NCBI GenBank assembly: GCA_025450195.1
Contig: JANWHW010000018.1
Coordinates: forward strand, 3,174-67,173
Direction: 5' to 3'
From: Solirubrobacterales bacterium
Lineage (GTDB): Bacteria > Actinomycetota > Thermoleophilia > Solirubrobacterales > 70-9
DNA length: 64,000 nt
Position 1 is the stretch's first letter. Each line of letters begins with the position of its first letter. The position numbers and the translations under genes are program-made. Under the pieces are notes generated by a model. That model was not told the origin of the DNA, searched no databases, and saw only the letters and a program-made list of their open reading frames with translations. Shown one piece after another: positions 1 through 36,105 of this stretch.

Positions 1-45
1 GTCCATATCTGATCCTTCGCGCCGCGAGCGAAGCGCGAAGATTGA
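1..45 (+). repeat. REP-like palindromic repeat, copy A (core CTTCGCGCCGCGAGCGAAGCGCGAAG at 15-40), preceded by GTCCATATCTGAT, the reverse complement of the ATCAGATATGGA motif found inside uvrC and pgk
   Basis: The arms CTTCGCGC and GCGCGAAG can pair (8 bp). Near-identical cores recur at 32418-32442 and 32488-32512. The copy lies directly upstream of the ATG at 50. Confidence 0.6.
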
Positions 46-49
46 TGCC

Positions 50-898
50 ATGACCGAGGAGCGCGTTCCGGCTCCGGACCCGAAGGGGCCGGCCAGAAAG
101 CCACCAAGTGAGGCAATCGCCGAAGCCCGCGTGCGGGTGCCGACAAGGGGCAACCGCAAGTTGGAGAGCTTCCTCAAGGCGGTGAACGATGACGAGCAGG
201 TTCGAGCCCGGTGGTACATGGCCCAGGTCCACGCCGAACGGCTGGGGATGTCGGACCACTCCTGGGTCCACACCCAGATCGTCCTCAACATTGCCCTTCG
301 TCTGCTCCGCTTACTGGTCAAGGCGGGCGTTGAGCCGGCAGTCGTCACCGATCACGGGATGTCCGCAAAAGACGCTGAGGTAGTCGTCGCCGGGGGCGCC
401 CTGCTGCATGACGTCGGCATGTCGATCCACCGGACCGATCACGAGGCCTACAGCCTCTTCCTTGCGAATGGCGTCCTCGACCGCCTCCTCGCCGACTCCT
501 ATCCCGAGCCCCTGCGGACGATTGTCGCCTCGGAGATCCTCCACGCGATCATCGGGCACCGCCGGCGTGGCGATCCCTACACGGTCGAGGCGGGTGTGGT
601 CCGGGTCGCGGATGCCCTCGACATGGCTCAGGGCCGCACGCGGATACCGCTGGAGGCAGGCCAAGAGGGGATCCACTCGATCTCAGCCGCCGCGGTTGAC
701 GAGGTTCGGATCGAAGCGGGGGAGGAGCGGCCGATACGGATCGAGATCGATCTCAACAACTCGGCCGGCATCTTCCAGGTCGACGATCTGCTGGCGACGA
801 AGATCCGCGGCACGCCGTTGGAGGGGCGGGTCGAGGTCGTGGCGGAGATCGAGGGTGAGAGCGAGAAGCGGTTGCTGAGCGGTTTCCGCCTGTCCTGA
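50..898 (+). CDS. HD-domain metal-dependent phosphohydrolase
   Basis: 282-aa ORF with an H...HD signature (LLHDVGMSIHRTDHE). Codon usage is coherent with the high-G+C background. Confidence 0.85.
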   Translation: MTEERVPAPDPKGPARKPPSEAIAEARVRVPTRGNRKLESFLKAVNDDEQVRARWYMAQVHAERLGMSDHSWVHTQIVLNIALRLLRLLVKAGVEPAVVTDHGMSAKDAEVVVAGGALLHDVGMSIHRTDHEAYSLFLANGVLDRLLADSYPEPLRTIVASEILHAIIGHRRRGDPYTVEAGVVRVADALDMAQGRTRIPLEAGQEGIHSISAAAVDEVRIEAGEERPIRIEIDLNNSAGIFQVDDLLATKIRGTPLEGRVEVVAEIEGESEKRLLSGFRLS

Positions 899-4819: not shown

Positions 4820-5941
4820 ATGGCCAAGTCGAAATTACCAACAAGATCGGTTGTGGCTGTACTCAGCCGTATCCTTGATTCCCCTGAGATCCAGGCACTG
4901 ATTGCTGAGCTTGAAGACACCCGCTGGACGGGTCGTCCTGGTTATCCAATGCGAGCGCTCGTCGGCTTGGCAATTGCAAAGTCTCTGTATCAGCGGCCCT
5001 GTTGGACCCAGATCGTGTCCCTCGCACAAGAGCACGATGCTCTGCGTCAAGCTCTCGGAGGCGAAGTTCCCTCTGTTCATGCCTGCTATCGCTTCACGAA
5101 GAAGCTGATCAAGTACAAGTCGCTTCGGGCTGATTGCGCTGATCGCTTGCTTGCGTCGCTGAAGGAGCTTCGCCCCGAGATGGGCGAGAACATCGCCATC
5201 GATGGCTCGGCTCTGCACGCCTACGCGAACGGGCATAAAACAACGATCCACAACGGACGTGAGCGGAAGCCAGAGGAGTTCAGCGATCCCGATGCCTCCT
5301 GGGGCCATCAGTCGGCGACCTCAACGGAGGGCAGGGGCCGAAGTATCTATGGCCATCGACTGCACATGGCTGCTTGCACGGCAACAGATTTGCCAGTGGC
5401 CTGGCATTTGAGCACAGCGCGCGATAGCGAGAAGCCAGTGGCCAGTGGCCTGCTCGATAAGACCCGCCAACGAGGGTTTGCCGCCCAGACCTGCGCGATG
5501 GACAAGGGTTATGACGCCGAAAGTACTTATGAGGAGTTTGAGGCTCGTGACTGCCACCCGGTCATCCCATTGATGAGGACGGGGTTCGTCAAGCAGGGGC
5601 GTCATCTACCTCATGAGTGCCGCCACGGCACCTGGGTCTTCGGGGGCAGCGACTACAAGCGCAAGGCAGCCAAGTGGCGTTGCCCCACAGGCGAATGCGA
5701 GGTCAGCAACCGTTGGGTCCCCGCCAGCCGCCTCCATACGTTGATCCCCCGCACGACTGATCGCTGGTTCAAGCTCAAAAGAGGCAGATCTTCGGTCGAG
5801 CGCGAGTTTGGACGCCTCAAGGACGGCTATGGCTTGAGGACGATCCGCGTCAGGGGGATTGAGAAAGTACGGCTACACGCCGACCTGACAATTCTGACGA
5901 GACTTGCCAGCTACCTCGCAAATAGCAGGGGTTTTCAGTGA
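4820..5941 (+). CDS. DDE transposase, IS4/IS5 superfamily (DUF772-like N-terminus)
   Basis: 373 aa with GRPGYPMRALVGLAIAKSLY (InsH-N-like), AMDKGYDAE, and the C-terminal SVEREFGRLKDGYGLRTIRVRG motif typical of this transposase superfamily. Confidence 0.85.
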   Translation: MAKSKLPTRSVVAVLSRILDSPEIQALIAELEDTRWTGRPGYPMRALVGLAIAKSLYQRPCWTQIVSLAQEHDALRQALGGEVPSVHACYRFTKKLIKYKSLRADCADRLLASLKELRPEMGENIAIDGSALHAYANGHKTTIHNGRERKPEEFSDPDASWGHQSATSTEGRGRSIYGHRLHMAACTATDLPVAWHLSTARDSEKPVASGLLDKTRQRGFAAQTCAMDKGYDAESTYEEFEARDCHPVIPLMRTGFVKQGRHLPHECRHGTWVFGGSDYKRKAAKWRCPTGECEVSNRWVPASRLHTLIPRTTDRWFKLKRGRSSVEREFGRLKDGYGLRTIRVRGIEKVRLHADLTILTRLASYLANSRGFQ

Positions 5942-5968
5942 AGTTTGGGTGGAGCGCCCATCCAAACT
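5942..5968 (+). terminator. hairpin immediately after the transposase stop codon (terminator or IS-end structure)
   Basis: AGTTTGGGTGG / CCATCCAAACT forms an 11-bp stem (one G-T pair) with a 5-nt loop. Confidence 0.35.
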
Positions 5969-5984
5969 GAGCTATAATTGCAGT

Positions 5985-6058
5985 CCACCTGTAGCTCAGT
6001 CTGGATAGAGCACTCCCGTCGCAGGGAGAGGTCGCGGGTCCGAATCCCGCCAGGTCTT
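5985..6058 (+). tRNA. tRNA-like sequence, probably a degenerate tRNA pseudogene (isotype unclear)
   Basis: There is a good D-arm (GCTCAGTCTGGATAGAGC) and T-stem (GCGGG/CCCGC). However, the top 2 acceptor pairs are mismatched, the anticodon loop has only 6 nt (GTCGCA), and the T-loop reads TCCGAAT instead of TTCGAAT. It abuts the IS end. Confidence 0.5.
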
Positions 6059-6132
6059 CGGAAGGCCCCCAGGCTGTGTATTCGCCGGGGGTCTTCTCTT
6101 TTTAGGGCACTTCCGTTGCTACCCTCGAAAGG

Positions 6133-6225
6133 ATGGAAGCTCTATTGAAATTCATCGTCGCCCTGATCGCGTTCGTGGTCGCGGGCCAGCGCCTGATAAC
6201 CGCCACTCGGCGACTTGGCCTGTAG
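6133..6225 (+). CDS. possible 30-aa hydrophobic peptide (speculative)
   Basis: Translates to MEALLKFIVALIAFVVAGQRLITATRRLGL, one TM-like helix plus a basic tail. The stop codon is embedded in the perfect 8-bp hairpin CCTGTAGG(6219-6226)/CCTACAGG(6235-6242). The ribosome-binding-site spacing is poor. Confidence 0.25.
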   Translation: MEALLKFIVALIAFVVAGQRLITATRRLGL

Positions 6226-6289
6226 GGCTGAAGACCTACAGGTCATCTGCGAAGCGCCGCGTTTCGCTGGCACTTTCGCTGGAGCCACC

Positions 6290-6455
6290 TAGGAGGGATT
6301 AGCGAAAACCCCGCCCACGACTGGCGGCGGCGGACACGGCGCGGTTCGGCGTCCTCGGTTGGCCAAATAGCGCTGCTATTTGGCCTCCCTGCGTCCTTGC
6401 CCCGCTTGGTCCGGCGCTCGCCAGCCGCAGACACGAGTTTCGCTAATCCCTCCTA
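6290..6455. repeat. MITE-like element: 18-bp perfect terminal inverted repeats separated by 130 bp
   Basis: TAGGAGGGATTAGCGAAA (6290-6307) pairs with TTTCGCTAATCCCTCCTA (6438-6455). An internal hairpin GGCCAAATAGC-GCT-GCTATTTGGCC has an 11-bp stem. The outermost TA on each side could be a target-site duplication. Confidence 0.6.
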
Positions 6456-6460
6456 ACGGG

Positions 6461-6482
6461 CTTTTACATCCTTTTTACATCC
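6461..6482 (+). promoter_or_regulatory. Pho-box-like direct repeats upstream of pstS
   Basis: CTTTTACATCC / TTTTTACATCC are two 11-nt direct repeats (10/11 identical). TTTACA hexamers at 6463-6468 and 6474-6479 show 11-bp periodicity, about 105 nt upstream of the pstS GTG. Confidence 0.55.
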
Positions 6483-22918: not shown

Positions 22919-23054
22919 ATGCGATTGCCGGGATGCTGCGTGTGACTTAATGACGCGGTCCGGCACGGGAGCTCATTGCATCTATGGCACTGCAGACGAC
23001 TGAAAGTACGGCGGGGAGAATCCCTGCAGAGCGCTCTTTAGTGCTCAAGGCCTT

Positions 23055-23140
23055 GACAGAGCCATTAGAATTATTCGAGTTCCGAAGCACGTCGGAACTT
23101 CCAGTGGACCCGACGGGCGAATAATTCTAATGGCTCTTTC
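23055..23140. repeat. large nested inverted repeat (20-bp perfect arms)
   Basis: AGAGCCATTAGAATTATTCG (23058-23077) pairs with CGAATAATTCTAATGGCTCT (23118-23137), extendable to 23 bp with 1 mismatch. The 40-nt spacer holds a second hairpin, GTTCCGA...TCGGAAC. The sequence is A+T-rich relative to its flanks. Confidence 0.7.
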
Positions 23141-23258
23141 AAGAATGCGGCCCTTCGTTGCTATTCCGTCTGGCCCTGGTGTAGTTTCTTTCTCACGGGC
23201 TAAAGGTTTCAGAGTCTCCTAATGGCTTTACAGCCGTTTAGCCGATAAAGGAGTTGAC

Positions 23259-28558: not shown

Positions 28559-30523
28559 GTGAGCAAGAGCGAACCAGGTACGCCGCGCGCCGAGCGTTTG
28601 GCGCAGCGACGCCGTGAGTTGCCCGATTCGCCGGGGGTCTACCTCTTCTACGACAGCGACGAGGAGCTGCTCTACGTCGGCAAGGCGCGCTCGATCCGCA
28701 AGCGTGTCGCGTCGCACTTCTCAGGGGGGGAGACGCGGCTTACCTCCAGGGTGGATCGGATCGACGTCCTCGTCACGGCCACGGAGGCGGAGGCGCTGCT
28801 CGCCGAGCAGAGCTTCATTAAGCGCCATCGCCCGCGCTTCAATATCAGGCTGCGCGACGACAAGTCCTACCCCTACGTCTGCGTCAGCCTCGACGAGGCT
28901 TTCCCACGCGTCTACTTCACGCGGGAGAAGCATCGCTCCGGACGGGCCTACTTCGGCCCCTTCTCGAGCGCGAAGCGGGTGCGAGAGACCCTCGACCTGC
29001 TCGGCAAGCTCTTCCAGTTCCGAACCTGCGAGGGGGCCGAGCCGGGGCGGCGGTCCGGCAGCCCCTGCCTCGATTACTTCATCAAGCGCTGCGGGGCGCC
29101 CTGCGTCGATTACGTCAGCCCCGAGGAGTACCGGCGCAACATCGACGCGATCGTCGATTTCCTCTCCGGGCGCTATCGCCAGGTAGAGGCCGACGAGCAG
29201 GCGAAGATGGATGAGGCGGCCGCGGCGCGTGAATTCGAGCGCGCCGCGCTGCATCGGGACCGCCTCAAGGCAATCCAGTCCCTGTTCGAGCGCCAGCGGA
29301 TCGCGGGGGGCTCGGTCGGCACCGCCGACCTGATCGGGGTGGCGGCCGAGGGGACCGATGCGAACGCCCAGGTCTTCCAGGTGCGAGACGGCATCCTCGC
29401 CGAGCGCCAGAATTTCTACCTCGACAACCAATCCGAACGCGAGCCGGCCGAAGTCGCCGAGGAGTTCATCGGCCAGTACTACTCGGCTTCACCGGCGATG
29501 CCTCGGACGATCGTTGTCGGCCCGTACCTGAAGGAGAGGGCGGAGCTGTTGGCGGCCGCCCTGAGCGAGCGCCGCGGGGCCCCGGTTGAGGTGCGGGTCG
29601 CCGAGCGGGGCGACAAGCGGCGACTGCGCGAGCTGGCCGAGCGCAACGCCCGCCTTGCTCTCGATCAGGATCGCCTGCGCCGCGAGCACCGCCGCCAGCG
29701 GCGGGTCGACTCGCTGGCGGATCTGGGCGAAGCCTTAGGGATGGAAGAGCTGCCGGTGCGGATTGAGGGCTTCGACATCTCGAATCTGGGTGGCGAGCAC
29801 ACCGTTGCCTCGATGGTGGTGTTCGAGGGAGGTGCAACGAAGAAGGCCCACTACCGCCGATTTAAAATCCGCTCGCGTACTCCGCCCCCGGACACGGCCA
29901 AAGAATCAGATATGGATGGTCGTATCTCAGATATGGATGGGAATGGCCGTGTTCTCCCGCGTCCGCCGCGAGCGGGTCCTGATGACTTCGCTTCGATGGA
30001 AGAGGTTCTGGATCGGCGGGTGAACCGTTACCTGGAGCAGGTCGACCTCTCGCCCCACGATGGCAAACGAGACGAGGGCTTCGCTTCGTTGCCCTCGCTG
30101 GTGGTGATCGACGGCGGCAAGGGGCAGCTGGCGGCTGGGACCCGTGTCCTGCGCCCGTTCGTCGAGCGGGGGGCGATGGTGGTCTCACTCGCGAAGCGCT
30201 TGGAGGAGGTCTACGTTCCCGGCCGCTCGGCGCCACTTGACCTGTCCGCCGACTCCGAAGCGTCGAAGCTACTCCAGCGAGTTCGCGACGAGGCCCATCG
30301 CTTTGCCATCGAACACCATCGCGGGCGCCGGGGCCGCGCGATGACGGGTTCAGTGCTCGATGAGCTGAAGGGGATTGGGCCGGTTCGCAAGCGCGCGCTG
30401 CTCCAGCACTTCGGCTCTCCGGAGCGCTTCATGGCCGCCACCCGGGAGGAGCTCGAGGCGGTGCCCGGCGTACCTGGCAAAGTTGCTCGCGAGATCCACG
30501 AGCAACTGCACAGAACTGGCTAG
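28559..30523 (+). CDS. uvrC: excinuclease ABC subunit C (carries an in-frame insertion of about 30 aa)
   Basis: GIY-YIG N-terminus (PGVYLFYD...LYVGKA), a UVR domain, an endonuclease V-like region and an (HhH)2 C-terminus. The GTG at 28559 is preferred as the start. Confidence 0.95.
   Translation: MSKSEPGTPRAERLAQRRRELPDSPGVYLFYDSDEELLYVGKARSIRKRVASHFSGGETRLTSRVDRIDVLVTATEAEALLAEQSFIKRHRPRFNIRLRDDKSYPYVCVSLDEAFPRVYFTREKHRSGRAYFGPFSSAKRVRETLDLLGKLFQFRTCEGAEPGRRSGSPCLDYFIKRCGAPCVDYVSPEEYRRNIDAIVDFLSGRYRQVEADEQAKMDEAAAAREFERAALHRDRLKAIQSLFERQRIAGGSVGTADLIGVAAEGTDANAQVFQVRDGILAERQNFYLDNQSEREPAEVAEEFIGQYYSASPAMPRTIVVGPYLKERAELLAAALSERRGAPVEVRVAERGDKRRLRELAERNARLALDQDRLRREHRRQRRVDSLADLGEALGMEELPVRIEGFDISNLGGEHTVASMVVFEGGATKKAHYRRFKIRSRTPPPDTAKESDMDGRISDMDGNGRVLPRPPRAGPDDFASMEEVLDRRVNRYLEQVDLSPHDGKRDEGFASLPSLVVIDGGKGQLAAGTRVLRPFVERGAMVVSLAKRLEEVYVPGRSAPLDLSADSEASKLLQRVRDEAHRFAIEHHRGRRGRAMTGSVLDELKGIGPVRKRALLQHFGSPERFMAATREELEAVPGVPGKVAREIHEQLHRTG
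29877..29973 (+). repeat. in-frame inserted element inside uvrC (boundaries approximate)
   Basis: GAATCAGATATGGAT (29903-29917), with TCAGATATGGATGG duplicated at 29927-29940, then CTCCCGCGTCCG (29954-29965). Bracketed by the inverted repeat ACACGGCC/GGCCGTGT. The same two motifs occur in the same order and frame in pgk. Confidence 0.6.
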
Positions 30524-31534: not shown

Positions 31535-32386
31535 TTGGACTCTGATCCCGTCATCTCCATTCGCGGCCTGCGCAAGCGCTACGGCGACGTCGAAGCAGTC
31601 CGCGGCATCGACCTCGAGGTCCAGCCCGGCGAGGTCTTCGCCTTCCTCGGGCCAAACGGCGCCGGCAAGACAACGACGGTCGAGATCCTCGAGGGGTACC
31701 GCAAGCGCGACGATGGCGAGGTAACCGTGCTGGGCGAGGACCCCGAGCGGGCGGGGCGTGCCTGGCGCGAGCGGATTGGGATAGTCCTGCAGAGCTGTCG
31801 CCTCGACCCATATTTGACGGTGCGGGAGTCTTTGGGCCTCTACGCCGGCTACTACAGCAACCCGATGTCGATCGAGGAGACGATCGAGCTCGCCGGCCTC
31901 GGTGGAAAGGCGAACTCACGCACCGGGGCGCTTTCCGGCGGCCAGCAGCGCCGCCTCGACGTCGGCATGGCGCTGATCGGCAACCCGGAGCTGCTGTTCC
32001 TCGACGAGCCGACCACCGGCTTCGACCCCTCGGCCCGCCGCCAGACCTGGGAGACGATCGCCGGCCTGCGTGACCTCGGCAAGACCGTCTTTCTCACCAC
32101 CCACTACATGGACGAGGCGCAGCGGCTTGCCGACCGAGTGGCGATCCTCGTCCGCGGCGAGGTGGTCGCCCGTGGCACGCCGGAGGACCTCGGCGATCGC
32201 GAGAACCGACCGGCGCGAATCACCTACCGCGACGCAGGGCGAGAGGTGCAGCTGGAAACGACGAATGCGGTGGAGACCCTGAACGAGCTGACCGGGCGGG
32301 CGCTTGCCGAGGGGCTCGAGCTCGAGGGCCTGGAGGTCACGCGCCCCAGCCTCGAGGACGTCTACCTGGAGCTGACGGACCAATGA
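31535..32386 (+). CDS. ABC-2-type (DrrA-like) exporter ATP-binding protein
   Basis: Walker A GPNGAGKTT, signature LSGGQQRRL, Walker B LFLDEPTTGFD. Confidence 0.92.
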   Translation: MDSDPVISIRGLRKRYGDVEAVRGIDLEVQPGEVFAFLGPNGAGKTTTVEILEGYRKRDDGEVTVLGEDPERAGRAWRERIGIVLQSCRLDPYLTVRESLGLYAGYYSNPMSIEETIELAGLGGKANSRTGALSGGQQRRLDVGMALIGNPELLFLDEPTTGFDPSARRQTWETIAGLRDLGKTVFLTTHYMDEAQRLADRVAILVRGEVVARGTPEDLGDRENRPARITYRDAGREVQLETTNAVETLNELTGRALAEGLELEGLEVTRPSLEDVYLELTDQ

Positions 32387-32520
32387 GCGCGGAGCGAGCA
32401 AGCGTCGCAGTCTGGTTCTTCGCGTCGCGAGCGAAGCGCGAAAGTTGCCGATGAGCGCGGAGCGAGCCCAATGAACGCAGTCTGGTTCTTCGCGTCGCGA
32501 GCGAAGCGCGAGAGTTGCCA
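32383..32520 (+). repeat. tandem direct repeat (68 + 70 bp), each unit containing the palindromic REP-like core
   Basis: The units start with ATGAGCGCGGAGCGAGC at 32383 and 32451. They share GCAGTCTGGTTCTTCGCGTCGCGAGCGAAGCGCGA(A/G)AGTTGCC(G/A). A third ATGAG at 32521 is the permease start. Confidence 0.85.
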
Positions 32521-33282
32521 ATGAGTCTCGTCCTGCACCAGCTCCGCTACGACCAGAAGGCCTTCTGGCGCAATCCCGCTGCGGTCTTCTTCACCGTCAT
32601 GTTCCCGGTCATCTTGCTGCTGATTTTCGCGACCGTCTTCGGGGACCAGACGATCGACACCGGCGACGGCATCGATGCGACCGCCTATTACGTGCCGGCG
32701 ATCATCACCCTCTCGGTTATATCGGCGACGATGCAGACGCTGGCGATGTCGCTGGTGATCGCTCGCGAGGACGGCCGCCTCAAGCGAGGCCGAGGCACGC
32801 CAATGCCCGCTTGGGTGTTCATCGCCGGCCGGATCGGCAACTCGGTCGTCGTCGCGGTGCTGATGCTCGCCCTCGTGGCGGCGATAGGCAAGGTCATATA
32901 CGGGGTGCCGATTCCCTGGGGCCAGATACCGGAGCTGCTCGCGGTGCTGGCGGTGGGCGCGGCGTCGTTCTGCTGCCTCGGGATCGCCCTCACGGCTGCG
33001 ATTCCCTCCCAGGACGCGGCGGCGGCCATCATCAACGCCCTGCTGCTGCCTCTGTACTTCCTCTCGGGCATCTTCATCCCCGACAGTGAGCTCCCAGCCG
33101 GCGTCATCGACTTTGCCAACCACTTCCCGATCCGGCACTTCTTCGAGGCGTTCTTCGACGCCTACGAGAGCGGCTCCGCCGTGGCCTGGGGGGACCTCGC
33201 GGTCGTCGCTGCCTGGGGCCTCGCCGGCCTTGCGATCGCGATTCGCTACTTCCGCTGGACCCCGCGGGCTGACAGACGCTGA
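32521..33282 (+). CDS. ABC-2-type exporter permease
   Basis: Six-TM hydrophobic protein after the ATPase. The ATG at 32521 is preferred over the ORF-track start at 32515. Confidence 0.85.
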   Translation: MSLVLHQLRYDQKAFWRNPAAVFFTVMFPVILLLIFATVFGDQTIDTGDGIDATAYYVPAIITLSVISATMQTLAMSLVIAREDGRLKRGRGTPMPAWVFIAGRIGNSVVVAVLMLALVAAIGKVIYGVPIPWGQIPELLAVLAVGAASFCCLGIALTAAIPSQDAAAAIINALLLPLYFLSGIFIPDSELPAGVIDFANHFPIRHFFEAFFDAYESGSAVAWGDLAVVAAWGLAGLAIAIRYFRWTPRADRR

Positions 33283-34833: not shown

Positions 34834-36105
34834 ATGTCGAGATTCTCCAAGGCAAGCGTCCGCGATGCCGATGTGGCGGGCAAGCGGGTGCTGGTTCGCG
34901 TTGACTTCAATGTGCCTCTTACAAAACCCACCGCCTCCTCTGCTCCCGGGAGCCCGGAGGAATCAGACATGGATCCGGGCTCCCTCCCGCGTCCGGGGGC
35001 GGCGGGGCTTCAGGTTGCCGATGACACCCGCATCCGGGCTGCGCTGCCGACAATCGAACTGCTGCGAGATCGAGGTGCGTCCGTGGTGCTCGTCTCCCAC
35101 CTGGGGCGGCCGAAGGGGAAGGTCGACCCGGAGCTCTCTATGCGACCGGTGGGAGAGCGCCTGGCGGAGCTGCTGGGCGCCCCGGTCAGCCAGGCGCCGG
35201 CCGTGATCGGCGAGGACATCGAGACGATGGCCAGGGGTCTCGGTCCAGGGGGCGTGCTGCTGCTGGAGAACGTTCGCTTCGAGCAGGGCGAGACGGAGAA
35301 CGACCCAGAGTTGGCCACAGCTCTGGCCGGGCTGGGGGACATCTACGTGAACGACGCCTTTGGGGCCGCCCATCGCGCCCACGCCAGCACCGAGGGCGTG
35401 GCGCACCATCTGCCCGCCTACGCCGGCCTCTTGCTCGAGCGGGAGGTAACCGAGCTGACCGCGGTGGTCGAGTCTCCATCCCGTTCTCTGGTCGTCGTCC
35501 TCGGTGGCGCCAAGGTCTCCGACAAGGTTGGGGTGATCGAGCGCTTCCTGGAGATCGCCGACCGAATCCTGATCGGCGGCGCGATGTGTTTCAGTTTCTT
35601 CCGGTCGCAGGGGATTGAGACCGGGGACTCGCTGGTGGAGGAGGAGGGCGTGAAGCTGGCCGCCGAGGCGCTGGAGCGGGCTCAGTCCTCCGATTGCGAG
35701 CTGATGCTGCCGGTCGATCTAGTGCTTGGGAGGAGCTTCGATGCCGGTACGGAGACCAGCGAGGGCGACGGCGTCGAGGTGCCGGAGGGCTGGATGGGTC
35801 TCGATATCGGCCCGAAGACGGCCGCCGCATACGCCGAAGCGATTGCCTCGGCGGGAACCGTGCTCTGGAACGGGCCGATGGGCGCCTTCGAGCTGGAGCC
35901 CTTCGCGGCGGGGACTCGGACTATCGCCGAGGCGATCGCCTCAGCACCCGGGACGACGGTGCTGGGCGGTGGCGACTCGGTTGCCGCCATGCAGCAGTTC
36001 GGGCTTGCTGACAAGGTGGACTGGCTATCGACCGGAGGAGGAGCCTCGTTGGAGCTGTTGGAGGGAAAGAAGCTGCCGGGAGTGGAGGCCTTGATCGATG
36101 CCTAG
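34834..36105 (+). CDS. pgk: phosphoglycerate kinase (carries an in-frame insertion of about 25 aa)
   Basis: RVDFNVPL...DDTRIRAALPTI...SHLGRPKG...GGGDS motifs. Confidence 0.95.
   Translation: MSRFSKASVRDADVAGKRVLVRVDFNVPLTKPTASSAPGSPEESDMDPGSLPRPGAAGLQVADDTRIRAALPTIELLRDRGASVVLVSHLGRPKGKVDPELSMRPVGERLAELLGAPVSQAPAVIGEDIETMARGLGPGGVLLLENVRFEQGETENDPELATALAGLGDIYVNDAFGAAHRAHASTEGVAHHLPAYAGLLLEREVTELTAVVESPSRSLVVVLGGAKVSDKVGVIERFLEIADRILIGGAMCFSFFRSQGIETGDSLVEEEGVKLAAEALERAQSSDCELMLPVDLVLGRSFDAGTETSEGDGVEVPEGWMGLDIGPKTAAAYAEAIASAGTVLWNGPMGAFELEPFAAGTRTIAEAIASAPGTTVLGGGDSVAAMQQFGLADKVDWLSTGGGASLELLEGKKLPGVEALIDA
34921..35008 (+). repeat. in-frame inserted element inside pgk (boundaries approximate)
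   Basis: GAATCAGACATGGAT (34960-34974) lies in the loop of the 10-bp hairpin GGGAGCCCGG (34948-34957) / CCGGGCTCCC (34975-34984), followed by CTCCCGCGTCCG (34984-34995). It matches the uvrC insert. Confidence 0.6.

Follow-up and report, generated by a model that had tools for sequence, protein, structure and literature searches.

uvrC and pgk carry related in-frame inserts

The DNA analysed here (the window) is a stretch of 64,000 nt from contig JANWHW010000018.1 of the Solirubrobacterales assembly GCA_025450195.1. It contains uvrC (28559-30523, + strand) and pgk (34834-36105, + strand) in the usual actinobacterial neighbourhood, i.e., uvrC-rapZ-...-gap-pgk-tpi. From the DNA alone, an original prediction had read insertions in these two genes as an in-frame element of the kind known as Rickettsia palindromic elements (RPEs). 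Our results support that reading: both inserts are copies of a dispersed palindromic repeat that is tolerated in frame.

The 15-mer GAATCAGATATGGAT lies in uvrC at 29903-29917 and its counterpart GAATCAGACATGGAT in pgk at 34960-34974, and each is followed by the 12-mer CTCCCGCGTCCG (Table 1). Re-reading the sequence placed these motifs where they had been predicted, in the same order and frame, encoding ESDMD...LPRP. With up to two mismatches allowed, the 15-mer had three matches in the window, compared with 0.08 expected from shuffled sequences. The 12-mer alone is unremarkable in this G+C-rich DNA (2.06 matches expected with up to one mismatch), and the unusual part is the paired, ordered occurrence of the two.

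The best 120 UvrC homologues (83-100% identity) all came from Solirubrobacterales metagenome-assembled genomes (MAGs) or soil metagenomes, and in 104 of them the YRRF..-DDFA.M segment was readable. A short normal spacer had been assumed, and 76 of the 104 do have only 7-15 residues, typically RGERSNGS, between YRRF(K/R)(I/V) and DDFA(S/A)M. Another 27 carry an insert of 25-46 residues with the consensus (K/R)FRPRALLPDTAKESDMDGRVLPRPPRAGP, and one (RFRPRAQLPRAGG) resembles an internal deletion. For Pgk, the site was empty in 100 of about 114 readable homologues, i.e., occupied by a 4-residue turn (DGGR). An insert was present in 14 of 120, in six cases in the forward form (..AASSAPGTPEESDMDPGSLPRPGAAG..), in five as another peptide (..AAPGRGSEGGSISDSSALAGAEEAAEY..) and in three as short remnants, including one of 11 aa. 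Most orthologues of both proteins therefore lack the loops.

In T. maritima PGK (1VPE), the residues that the Pgk insert replaces are 26-29, which lie between two N-domain strands. For UvrC, the blocks on either side of the insert align to the RNase-H-like endonuclease domain (2NRT and 3C65), in which the equivalent loop has about six residues. In an AlphaFold2 model of Pgk (39 homologues), residues 34-56 had a predicted local distance difference test score (pLDDT) below 50 and no secondary structure. These mappings agree with the expectation that the inserts would occupy loops, and the inserted peptide is most likely a passive, disordered linker.

Both inserts can form hairpins. In uvrC, the inverted repeat that had been noted around the first motif, ACACGGCC/GGCCGTGT (29892-29899 and 29945-29952), was confirmed. 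Because an outer 8-bp pair, CGCTCGCG/CGCGAGCG, is also present, the palindrome is long and imperfect and takes in all 105 nt of the insert, whose minimum-free-energy fold has outer, middle and inner helices (z = -1.8). In pgk the hairpin core spans 34927-35006, with a fold energy of -49 kcal/mol (z = -3.2). The motif there does lie in the loop of a different stem, as claimed, although this stem (GGGAGCCCGGA/TCCGGGCTCCC) is of 11 bp rather than 10. The pgk outer stem includes a T.G position that is conserved in the element family (column pair 19-105, UG in 77 copies). A 21-nt tandem duplication had been described in uvrC; TCAGATATGGATGG does occur twice, at 29906 and 29927, but the two units disagree in their remaining 7 nt. 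The core is single in other uvrC copies, and compared with the 28-aa insert of its closest relatives the window insert has 27 extra nt, i.e., a window-specific internal duplication.

Table 1. Features of the repeat copies in the window
Feature	Position	Strand	Details
uvrC element copy	29870..29974	+	105 nt = 35 codons (RSRTPPPDTAKESDMDGRISDMDGNGRVLPRPPRA); covariance model 55.8 bits, E=9e-13
uvrC outer stem, 5' arm CGCTCGCG	29870..29877	+	partner CGCGAGCG, 29967-29974; from sequence and fold
uvrC inner stem, 5' arm GGACACGGCC	29890..29899	+	partner GGCCGTGT(TC), 29945-29954; from sequence and fold
uvrC apical loop region	29900..29944	+	AAAGAA, then core TCAGATATGGAT (29906-29917); duplicated core 29927-29938
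uvrC 3' internal segment CTCCCGCGTCCG	29954..29965	+	conserved; encodes LPRP
pgk element copy	34918..35013	+	96 nt = 32 codons (LTKPTASSAPGSPEESDMDPGSLPRPGAAGLQ); covariance model 91.5 bits, E=2e-22
pgk outer stem, 5' arm CCCACCGCCTCC	34927..34938	+	partner GGGGGCGGCGGG, 34996-35007; from sequence and fold
pgk inner stem, 5' arm GGGAGCCCGGA	34948..34958	+	partner TCCGGGCTCCC, 34974-34984; from sequence and fold
pgk apical loop GGAATCAGACATGGAT	34959..34974	+	encodes (E)ESDMD
pgk 3' internal segment CTCCCGCGTCCG	34984..34995	+	conserved
ATGA element, 3' part	1..52	+	just upstream of HD-domain gene (50-898); full copy at L003:3166-3240
ATGA element, two tandem copies	32386..32525	+	at ATGA stop/start overlap of ABC ATPase and permease genes

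The inserts belong to a dispersed repeat family

One genome per species was scanned with the pattern TCAGANATGGAT-N(7-17)-CTCCCGCG, which gave at least 120 matches. About 111 of the matches listed came from genomes nearly all titled Solirubrobacterales, Conexibacteraceae or unclassified Actinomycetota, and these had an 8-9-nt gap and the same extended architecture. Nine of the matches listed, from other phyla, had gaps of 11-17 nt and no further similarity, and look like chance occurrences. The motif pair thus recurs beyond uvrC and pgk, as had been anticipated, at many loci and several times per genome (among the matches listed, at least 6 loci in CAWFLL01, 6 in CAWDUO01 and 4 in DATBHH01).

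The element is about 85-100 nt long. From an A/T-rich end it runs through an outer stem and the left internal segment CTCYGCTCCCG to an inner stem of 10 bp; the loop RAAGAATCAGATATGGAT follows, and then the complementary inner arm, CTCCCGCGTCCG and the complementary outer arm. The aligned consensus is (A/T-rich)CCGCCGCC-TC-CTCYGCTCCCG-(10-bp stem)-RAAGAA-TCAGATATGGAT-(stem')-CTCCCGCGTCCG-GGGGCGGCGG(A/T-rich).

A covariance model built from the family alignment matched the pgk and uvrC copies in the window and nothing else below E=0.01. In 842 kb of loci fetched from other genomes (designated by L numbers) it gave 105 matches. Eleven copies that the pattern had missed were found in about 0.74 Mb of flanking DNA, i.e., about 15 per Mb; if this density holds genome-wide, it would correspond, very roughly, to 35-45 copies per genome of 2.5-3 Mb. 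These unascertained copies range from intact to badly decayed, and include three short forms without the inner hairpin. The short forms are about 54 nt long (L048:6372-6425, L025:6520-6573 and L029:5187-5240), and retain the outer stem and internal segments, with the inner hairpin and loop gone. All three have the identical junction GCTTCGCGTCCG, and they represent either a deletion subfamily or the ancestral form.

Searches of existing collections identified no known family. Among the 4227 models of Rfam nothing reached the gathering threshold, and at E<=5 the one match overlapping the pgk copy was a chance match to Pab160 (21.8 bits). Viral contigs gave one chance match to the pattern, in an A+T-rich phage, and hence no sign of a phage origin. 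When a synthetic forward-plus-reverse consensus peptide was compared with 5.8 billion proteins, there were nine word-filter candidates and one uninformative match. The 32-aa pgk insert peptide had no match at E<=0.001 among 1.84 billion cluster representatives, a library for which the query is too short; the host spectrum was therefore taken from the DNA loci. [quoted passage not shown] In the literature searched we found no description of an element of this type in Solirubrobacterales or Actinomycetota, in agreement with the novelty that had been claimed.

The stems vary in sequence but remain complementary

In the model-based alignment there are 24 base pairs in three helices, and 96.0% of cells are paired, compared with 70.6% when the 3' partners were shuffled and 41-51% when they were slid. 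Both sides of a pair had changed in 518 cells, compared with 128 in shuffles, and compensatory change occurred in 20 of the 24 pairs. This alignment was fitted to the covariance model. An alignment-free count anchored on the conserved segments agrees with it, a perfect 10-bp inner helix being present in about three-quarters of the copies. The 105 copies contain 77 distinct inner arms and 43 distinct outer arms: the stems vary among copies yet stay complementary, whereas the unpaired segments are nearly invariant. Even CTCYGCTCCCG, which lies outside the search pattern, is at least 90% conserved. Orthologous uvrC inner stems also show compensatory changes, being GGGCGCGGCC/GGCCGCGCCC at L007 and GGACACGGTC/GACCGTGCCC at L008. 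The proposal that the hairpin is preserved with different stem sequences thus holds across the aligned copies. Shuffled G+C-rich sequence also folds well, so that the z-scores of the single copies are modest, and the case for a structure rests on the covariation.

The 2042 cells of the variable stems include 1977 Watson-Crick pairs, 26 A.C and 10 G.T mismatches, and therefore provide no wobble signature that would identify the transcribed strand; two positions fixed as T.G point the other way. Stems are unique to each copy within a genome, whereas orthologous copies resemble one another in their stems between species and show some compensated differences. In orthologous sets the left internal segment is 87-100% identical, the arms 68-100% and the ungapped flanks 32-75%, figures that are subject to an ascertainment caveat.

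The uvrC and pgk sites have separate histories

DNA of relatives shows that occupancy of the two sites differs between genomes. At L007 and L010 the uvrC copy is present and the pgk site is empty, while L009 has neither copy, so that the two copies in the window have separate histories. At L131 the pgk copy is reverse-complemented between the same outer arms (CCCGCCGCC...GGCGGCGGG), and at L132 the ends alone remain. From these sequences, the element appears to have been gained, inverted and eroded at the uvrC and pgk sites. The L008 genome (GCA_041393445.1) has a strongly decayed uvrC copy (EPDADD; 54 bits). Its Pgk (L008:16054-17307) has a 16-residue loop, ADPAPGREAAEVGGRV, at the insertion site, which looks like a reverse-orientation copy minus its centre.

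Both orientations at one site, in different genomes, were found not only in pgk but also at two sites in IleS and at one intergenic site. Because the palindrome reaches the A/T-rich ends, and because a single Pgk clade contains the forward and reverse pgk types intermixed, in-place inversion between the arms is the most economical explanation; independent insertions at one hot spot would be the alternative.

Copies occur in frame in many proteins and at gene junctions

About one-quarter of the copies lie in frame inside proteins, and at least 19 are inside well-supported genes. Hosts identified using Pfam include Dxs, where the copy lies between the N-terminal and pyrimidine-binding domains; IleS, where it lies between the catalytic core and the anticodon-binding domain, with a second site before the WTTTPW motif; an AidB-like acyl-CoA dehydrogenase; a PMT_2 glycosyltransferase; and, in reverse orientation, an MMPL transporter. 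The element also provides the C-terminal tails of NuoF and of the PntA 4TM subunit, and lies at the N terminus of NuoE. Two apparent PMT_2-like frames about 1.4 kb apart each contain a copy next to a similar stretch of sequence; the insertion would then be older than a gene duplication.

The length of the element and its stop-free frames, one forward (..AASSAP..ESDMD..LPRPGAAG) and one reverse (..APGRGSE.SISDS..AGAEEAAE), make read-through possible. When the frame of the upstream gene was followed, forward copies in the frame TCA-GAT-ATG-GAT (SDMD) were read through in 17 cases and formed C-terminal tails in 13; for reverse copies in the ..SISDS.. frame there were six of each. The overall tally for 116 copies was 29 gene-frame/orientation combinations with read-through and 28 with C-terminal tails, a crude count in which one copy may score in both orientations. 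Open frames through the insert have been kept across dozens of species.

As judged by coding-potential tests, flanking genes are co-oriented with the forward strand of the element at 52 sites and with the reverse strand at 21; they are divergent at seven sites and convergent at two. Several nuo operon junctions carry copies; the loci concerned, together with those of the PMT_2-like frames, are L087:6043-7985 and L074:6111-7592. In translation, the nuo copies would form the N terminus of NuoE, that of NuoD (a decayed copy) and, in other genomes, the C-terminal tail of NuoF. One and the same gene (encoding MSEL/MSDL...) has the element 4-9 nt upstream of its start codon, on the opposite strand, in at least 10 species (element left end at loci L016, L028, L034, L050, L057, L077, L088, L099, L108, L111 and L124). 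This places the GAGGAGG of the element, which is partly paired in the outer stem, at Shine-Dalgarno distance from the MSEL/MSDL gene.

A second repeat family shares the loop core

A third exact copy of the core, ATCAGATATGGA, is present at positions 2-13 of the window on the minus strand. It was overlooked in the original prediction, and belongs to a different repeat family, which we term the ATGA element (Table 1). A scan of soil metagenomes with 22 specified bases yielded at least 120 matches to it; those listed include 109 distinct copies that conform almost without variation to a consensus of about 72 nt. The ATGA element has RTGAGC at each boundary and lies precisely at start codons or ATGA overlaps. 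It forms an upstream frame of 22 codons, MSAERASVHIWFFAPRAKREDL*, whose stop codon overlaps the downstream ATG, and by reading of the sequence the two would be translationally coupled. Its two tandem copies at 32386-32525 are lacking at the corresponding site in L007, L008, L010 and L132.

Structurally the ATGA element is unrelated to the palindromic element. However, its centre (GCATATCTGGTTC) matches the loop of the latter (reverse complement CCATATCTGATTC) at 11 of 12 positions, the shared loop core being GAAYCAGATATG. As a reading of sequence, this suggests that one recognition system may serve both element families.

Origin of the inserts and alternative explanations

The explanation that we consider very probable is that the UvrC and Pgk loops are resident copies of a dispersed, non-coding, hairpin-forming repeat, the "Solirubrobacterales palindromic element". 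Spread by insertion we infer from the multi-locus distribution, the presence or absence of copies at orthologous sites and the independent histories of the two window copies; the word "mobile" in the original prediction has the same standing. Neither a transposase nor a target-site duplication was found in the loci examined, and no recent insertion was observed. According to this explanation, some trans-acting machinery would recognize the invariant loops and the paired stem, rather than the stem sequence, and drive insertion, and in-frame copies landing in tolerant loops would survive selection. A resident copy could then flip in place between its inverted-repeat arms, or lose its centre if slippage occurred between the direct CTCCCG repeats on either side of the inner hairpin. 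Selection for the hairpin, hairpin-templated (quasipalindrome) correction, or the two together may keep the arms complementary. If one arm were corrected from the other, this would also explain the near absence of half-compensated pairs, and would be the same kind of event as would flip the centre of the element.

Several observations weigh against spread by a mobile repeat. No stem is shared between copies within a genome, so that there is no sign of recent bursts, and the family looks old and mostly vertically inherited. The strong conservation of the unpaired nucleotides would not be predicted for a purely selfish, decaying repeat and points to some function in place. The sample was chosen by an exact pattern covering 19 loop and internal positions, so that loop invariance is overstated. 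Neighbour-joining trees require at least eight changes at the pgk site and at least 15 at the uvrC site, but are too crude to separate repeated gain from loss. The filled/empty comparisons are all between diverged genomes, with no near-identical pair differing by one insertion. No consistent direct repeat that might represent a target-site duplication was seen in the flanks of about 110 copies or in four filled/empty comparisons. Finally, no gene for a transposase, recombinase or RAYT-like protein was seen beside the copies in the loci examined (about 1 Mb; whole genomes were not searched); the genes between closely spaced copies are purQ and nuoD/nuoE, and there is no transposase in those two intervals.

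An alternative is that the element is primarily a host-functional structured nucleic-acid motif under purifying selection at each site, either bound by a global RNA- or DNA-binding protein or acting as a module for translation or mRNA stability at gene junctions, with in-frame copies as by-products. Invariant unpaired segments with covarying stems are the signature of functional structured RNAs, orthologous copies are better conserved than their flanks, and many copies adjoin start or stop codons. In at least 10 species the reverse-strand GAGGAGG precedes the ATG of a conserved gene by 8-10 nt, and could be a Shine-Dalgarno site partly sequestered in the outer stem. The excess of flanking genes co-oriented with the forward strand (52 sites versus 21), the persistence of AT-ending codons (GAA TCA GAT ATG GAT) in genes whose G+C content at third codon positions (GC3) exceeds 0.9, and the 11/12-nt loop core in a second, structurally different repeat family all fit the same idea. 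We nevertheless consider it rather unlikely as a full account. The element occurs in both orientations, even at one site, and at arbitrary positions in at least nine unrelated proteins, for which a regulatory motif would offer no reason; G.T pairs are not enriched over A.C (10 versus 26), unlike in typical RNA helices; there is no match to an Rfam family; and decayed copies, short forms and deletion remnants exist. The functional motif and the repeat overlap in that the element could be a domesticated repeat.

A selected protein module, i.e., a short linear motif (ESDMD...LPRP) favoured in each host protein and spread by recombination, is in our view very improbable. The peptide is conserved among insert-bearing UvrC orthologues and one frame dominates the forward in-frame copies, but the same sites also hold the reverse orientation, encoding an unrelated peptide (APGRGSE.SISDS..AEEAAE), many copies are intergenic, some of the conserved positions are synonymous sites at which disfavoured codons ending in A/T are used, and the loop is predicted by AlphaFold2 to be disordered. 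Old lineage-specific loops that are alike by chance, or through convergent low-complexity composition, can hardly be credited. The peptides are rich in Pro, Ser, Ala and Gly, and CTCCCGCGTCCG by itself is unremarkable; yet the two inserts share an architecture and remain similar over about 80 nt (E=2e-22 and 9e-13), there are more than 100 further copies, mostly in other places and many of them intergenic, and most orthologues lack the loops. The pattern scan and the covariance-model matches had already refuted this account.

An artefact of metagenome assembly or binning, which the original prediction had named as a way in which it could fail, has almost nothing in its favour beyond the origin of the data in MAGs, in which some mis-binning occurs. 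The Pgk protein of the window is encoded on seven contigs. The two shown, DATBQX010000010.1 (MAG GCA_036560605.1) and one in the Joint Genome Institute (JGI) metagenome 3300035693, both also encode a 654-aa UvrC, and two further JGI assemblies include the 5' portion of the window that surrounds the HD gene. Homologous inserts occur in dozens of independently assembled genomes, closed long-read chromosomes included, and their reading frames remain open. As an example of mis-binning, L026 (JBLMYD010000007.1, binned as "Chloroflexota bacterium") has the same locus and copy as the closed Solirubrobacterales chromosome L039 (OY969702.1), and is probably mis-binned.

Returning to the dispersed palindromic repeat, the age of the family and the nucleotide constraint on intact copies mean that a purely selfish, decaying repeat is not the full explanation. 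The simplest unifying idea is that the invariant loops, presented on a paired scaffold, are recognized by a trans-acting factor; this factor could act either in mobility or in a host function such as the control of translation or mRNA at gene junctions. A bolder version is that the element is a long-lived structured module, read through its invariant loops by a dedicated Solirubrobacterales protein, rather than a simple selfish repeat. This is prompted by the loop core common to the second repeat, by arms that are perfectly complementary with almost no wobble, and by the in-place flip of a sequence that is translatable both ways; we offer it tentatively, and think the odds are somewhat against it.

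Comparison with known repeats

The element is an undescribed repeat that is much like RPEs in kind, being dispersed, multi-copy and palindromic, and present in frame in many hosts at fold-compatible positions. As far as the account of RPEs (Ogata et al., 2000) given in PMC10969869 goes, both are short, dispersed hairpin repeats that encode no transposase; both occur in intergenic DNA as well as in frame in many unrelated housekeeping genes, where they encode a conserved peptide at positions compatible with the fold; and in both, copies are common to related species but variably present. On the same account, the RPE host is a reduced, obligate intracellular alphaproteobacterium, whereas the present element is found in a free-living, high-G+C soil actinobacterial order; RPEs are about 100-150 nt, compared with about 85-100 nt; and the present element differs in having nearly invariant unpaired segments with both stems hypervariable and compensated, and in occupying one site in both orientations, both of them in open frames that would be translated. 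Sequence homology to RPE-1 to RPE-10, judged by composition and host alone, is very unlikely.

Repetitive extragenic palindromic (REP) sequences, and the REPINs composed of them, are also abundant, G+C-rich, non-autonomous hairpin repeats that are old and largely vertically inherited, and a REPIN, like the present element, forms a long hairpin with bulges. Recognition of structure by a single-strand transposase, as in the REP/RAYT (REP-associated tyrosine transposase) system, would explain why pairing rather than stem sequence is conserved. However, the GTAG or CGTC head of REP sequences, which are palindromes of 20-40 nt, is absent from our consensus, and whereas REPINs have a conserved stem (the REP) and a variable loop, the reverse is true here. 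REP sequences are extragenic by definition, whereas about one-quarter of our copies are inside genes, and no RAYT was seen in the loci examined (whole genomes were not searched). RPE-encoded peptides have reportedly been proposed to be amphipathic and partly helical, while the peptide of the present element is predicted to be disordered.

Bacterial MITEs known to form in-frame fusions (ERIC, BOX, Coxiella QMITE1 and those of Anabaena; PMC10969869, PMC5896051) resemble the element in their small size, many copies and occasional in-frame intragenic copies, and in part in their terminal inverted repeats. No target-site duplication was identified in the flanks inspected, nor a parent insertion sequence (IS) with matching ends in the roughly 1 Mb sampled; the terminal repeats (outer arms plus A/T-rich ends) are inverted within a copy but differ between copies; and the intragenic fraction is far above the "occasional" level. 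Cis-regulatory RNAs of the type collected in Rfam share the invariant unpaired nucleotides, covarying helices and frequent placement at the 5' ends of genes, but not the occurrence in both orientations and in coding sequence, the decayed or deleted copies and the lack of wobble enrichment.

In-frame-tolerated palindromic repeats have been treated as a curiosity of Rickettsia and of a few reduced or repeat-rich genomes. Here, the same phenomenon occurs at high frequency in an abundant, free-living, uncultured order of soil actinobacteria, and in core enzymes, among them UvrC, Pgk, Dxs, IleS and subunits of complex I. It provides a natural experiment, with many independent insertions, inversions and deletions of a disordered segment of about 30 residues in essential proteins, and the combination of invariant loops with hypervariable, compensated stems offers a tractable handle on how a repeat is recognized and maintained. 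The element also accounts for anomalous lengths and for "hypothetical" extensions at N and C termini in annotations of Solirubrobacterales MAGs, and can mislead gene callers and homology-based alignments. If the idea of a dedicated trans-acting protein were true, it would represent a new host-element partnership within coding sequence, either REPIN/RAYT-like or regulatory.

Other features of the window and fetched loci

A DDE_Tnp_1 transposase gene (L003:8007-9128) corresponds to part of the window region 4820-6462; behind it, at 5987-6055, there is a weak match to a tRNA (38 bits), and then an inverted repeat whose 44-nt arms, at 6283-6326 and 6419-6462, are separated by a 92-nt spacer and which showed no relation to the element. 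The DDE transposase of the window (about 4820-5941) was considered as a possible parent of the palindromic element, and no link was found. A cobalamin riboswitch at L041:1635-1823 (69.6 bits) is likewise unrelated to the element. An unusually A+T-rich, intergenic inverted repeat of 26 nt (CTTGACAGAGCCATTAGAATTATTCG/CGAATAATTCTAATGGCTCTTTCAAG), with arms that are 96% complementary and lie 40 nt apart, is present at 23052-23143.

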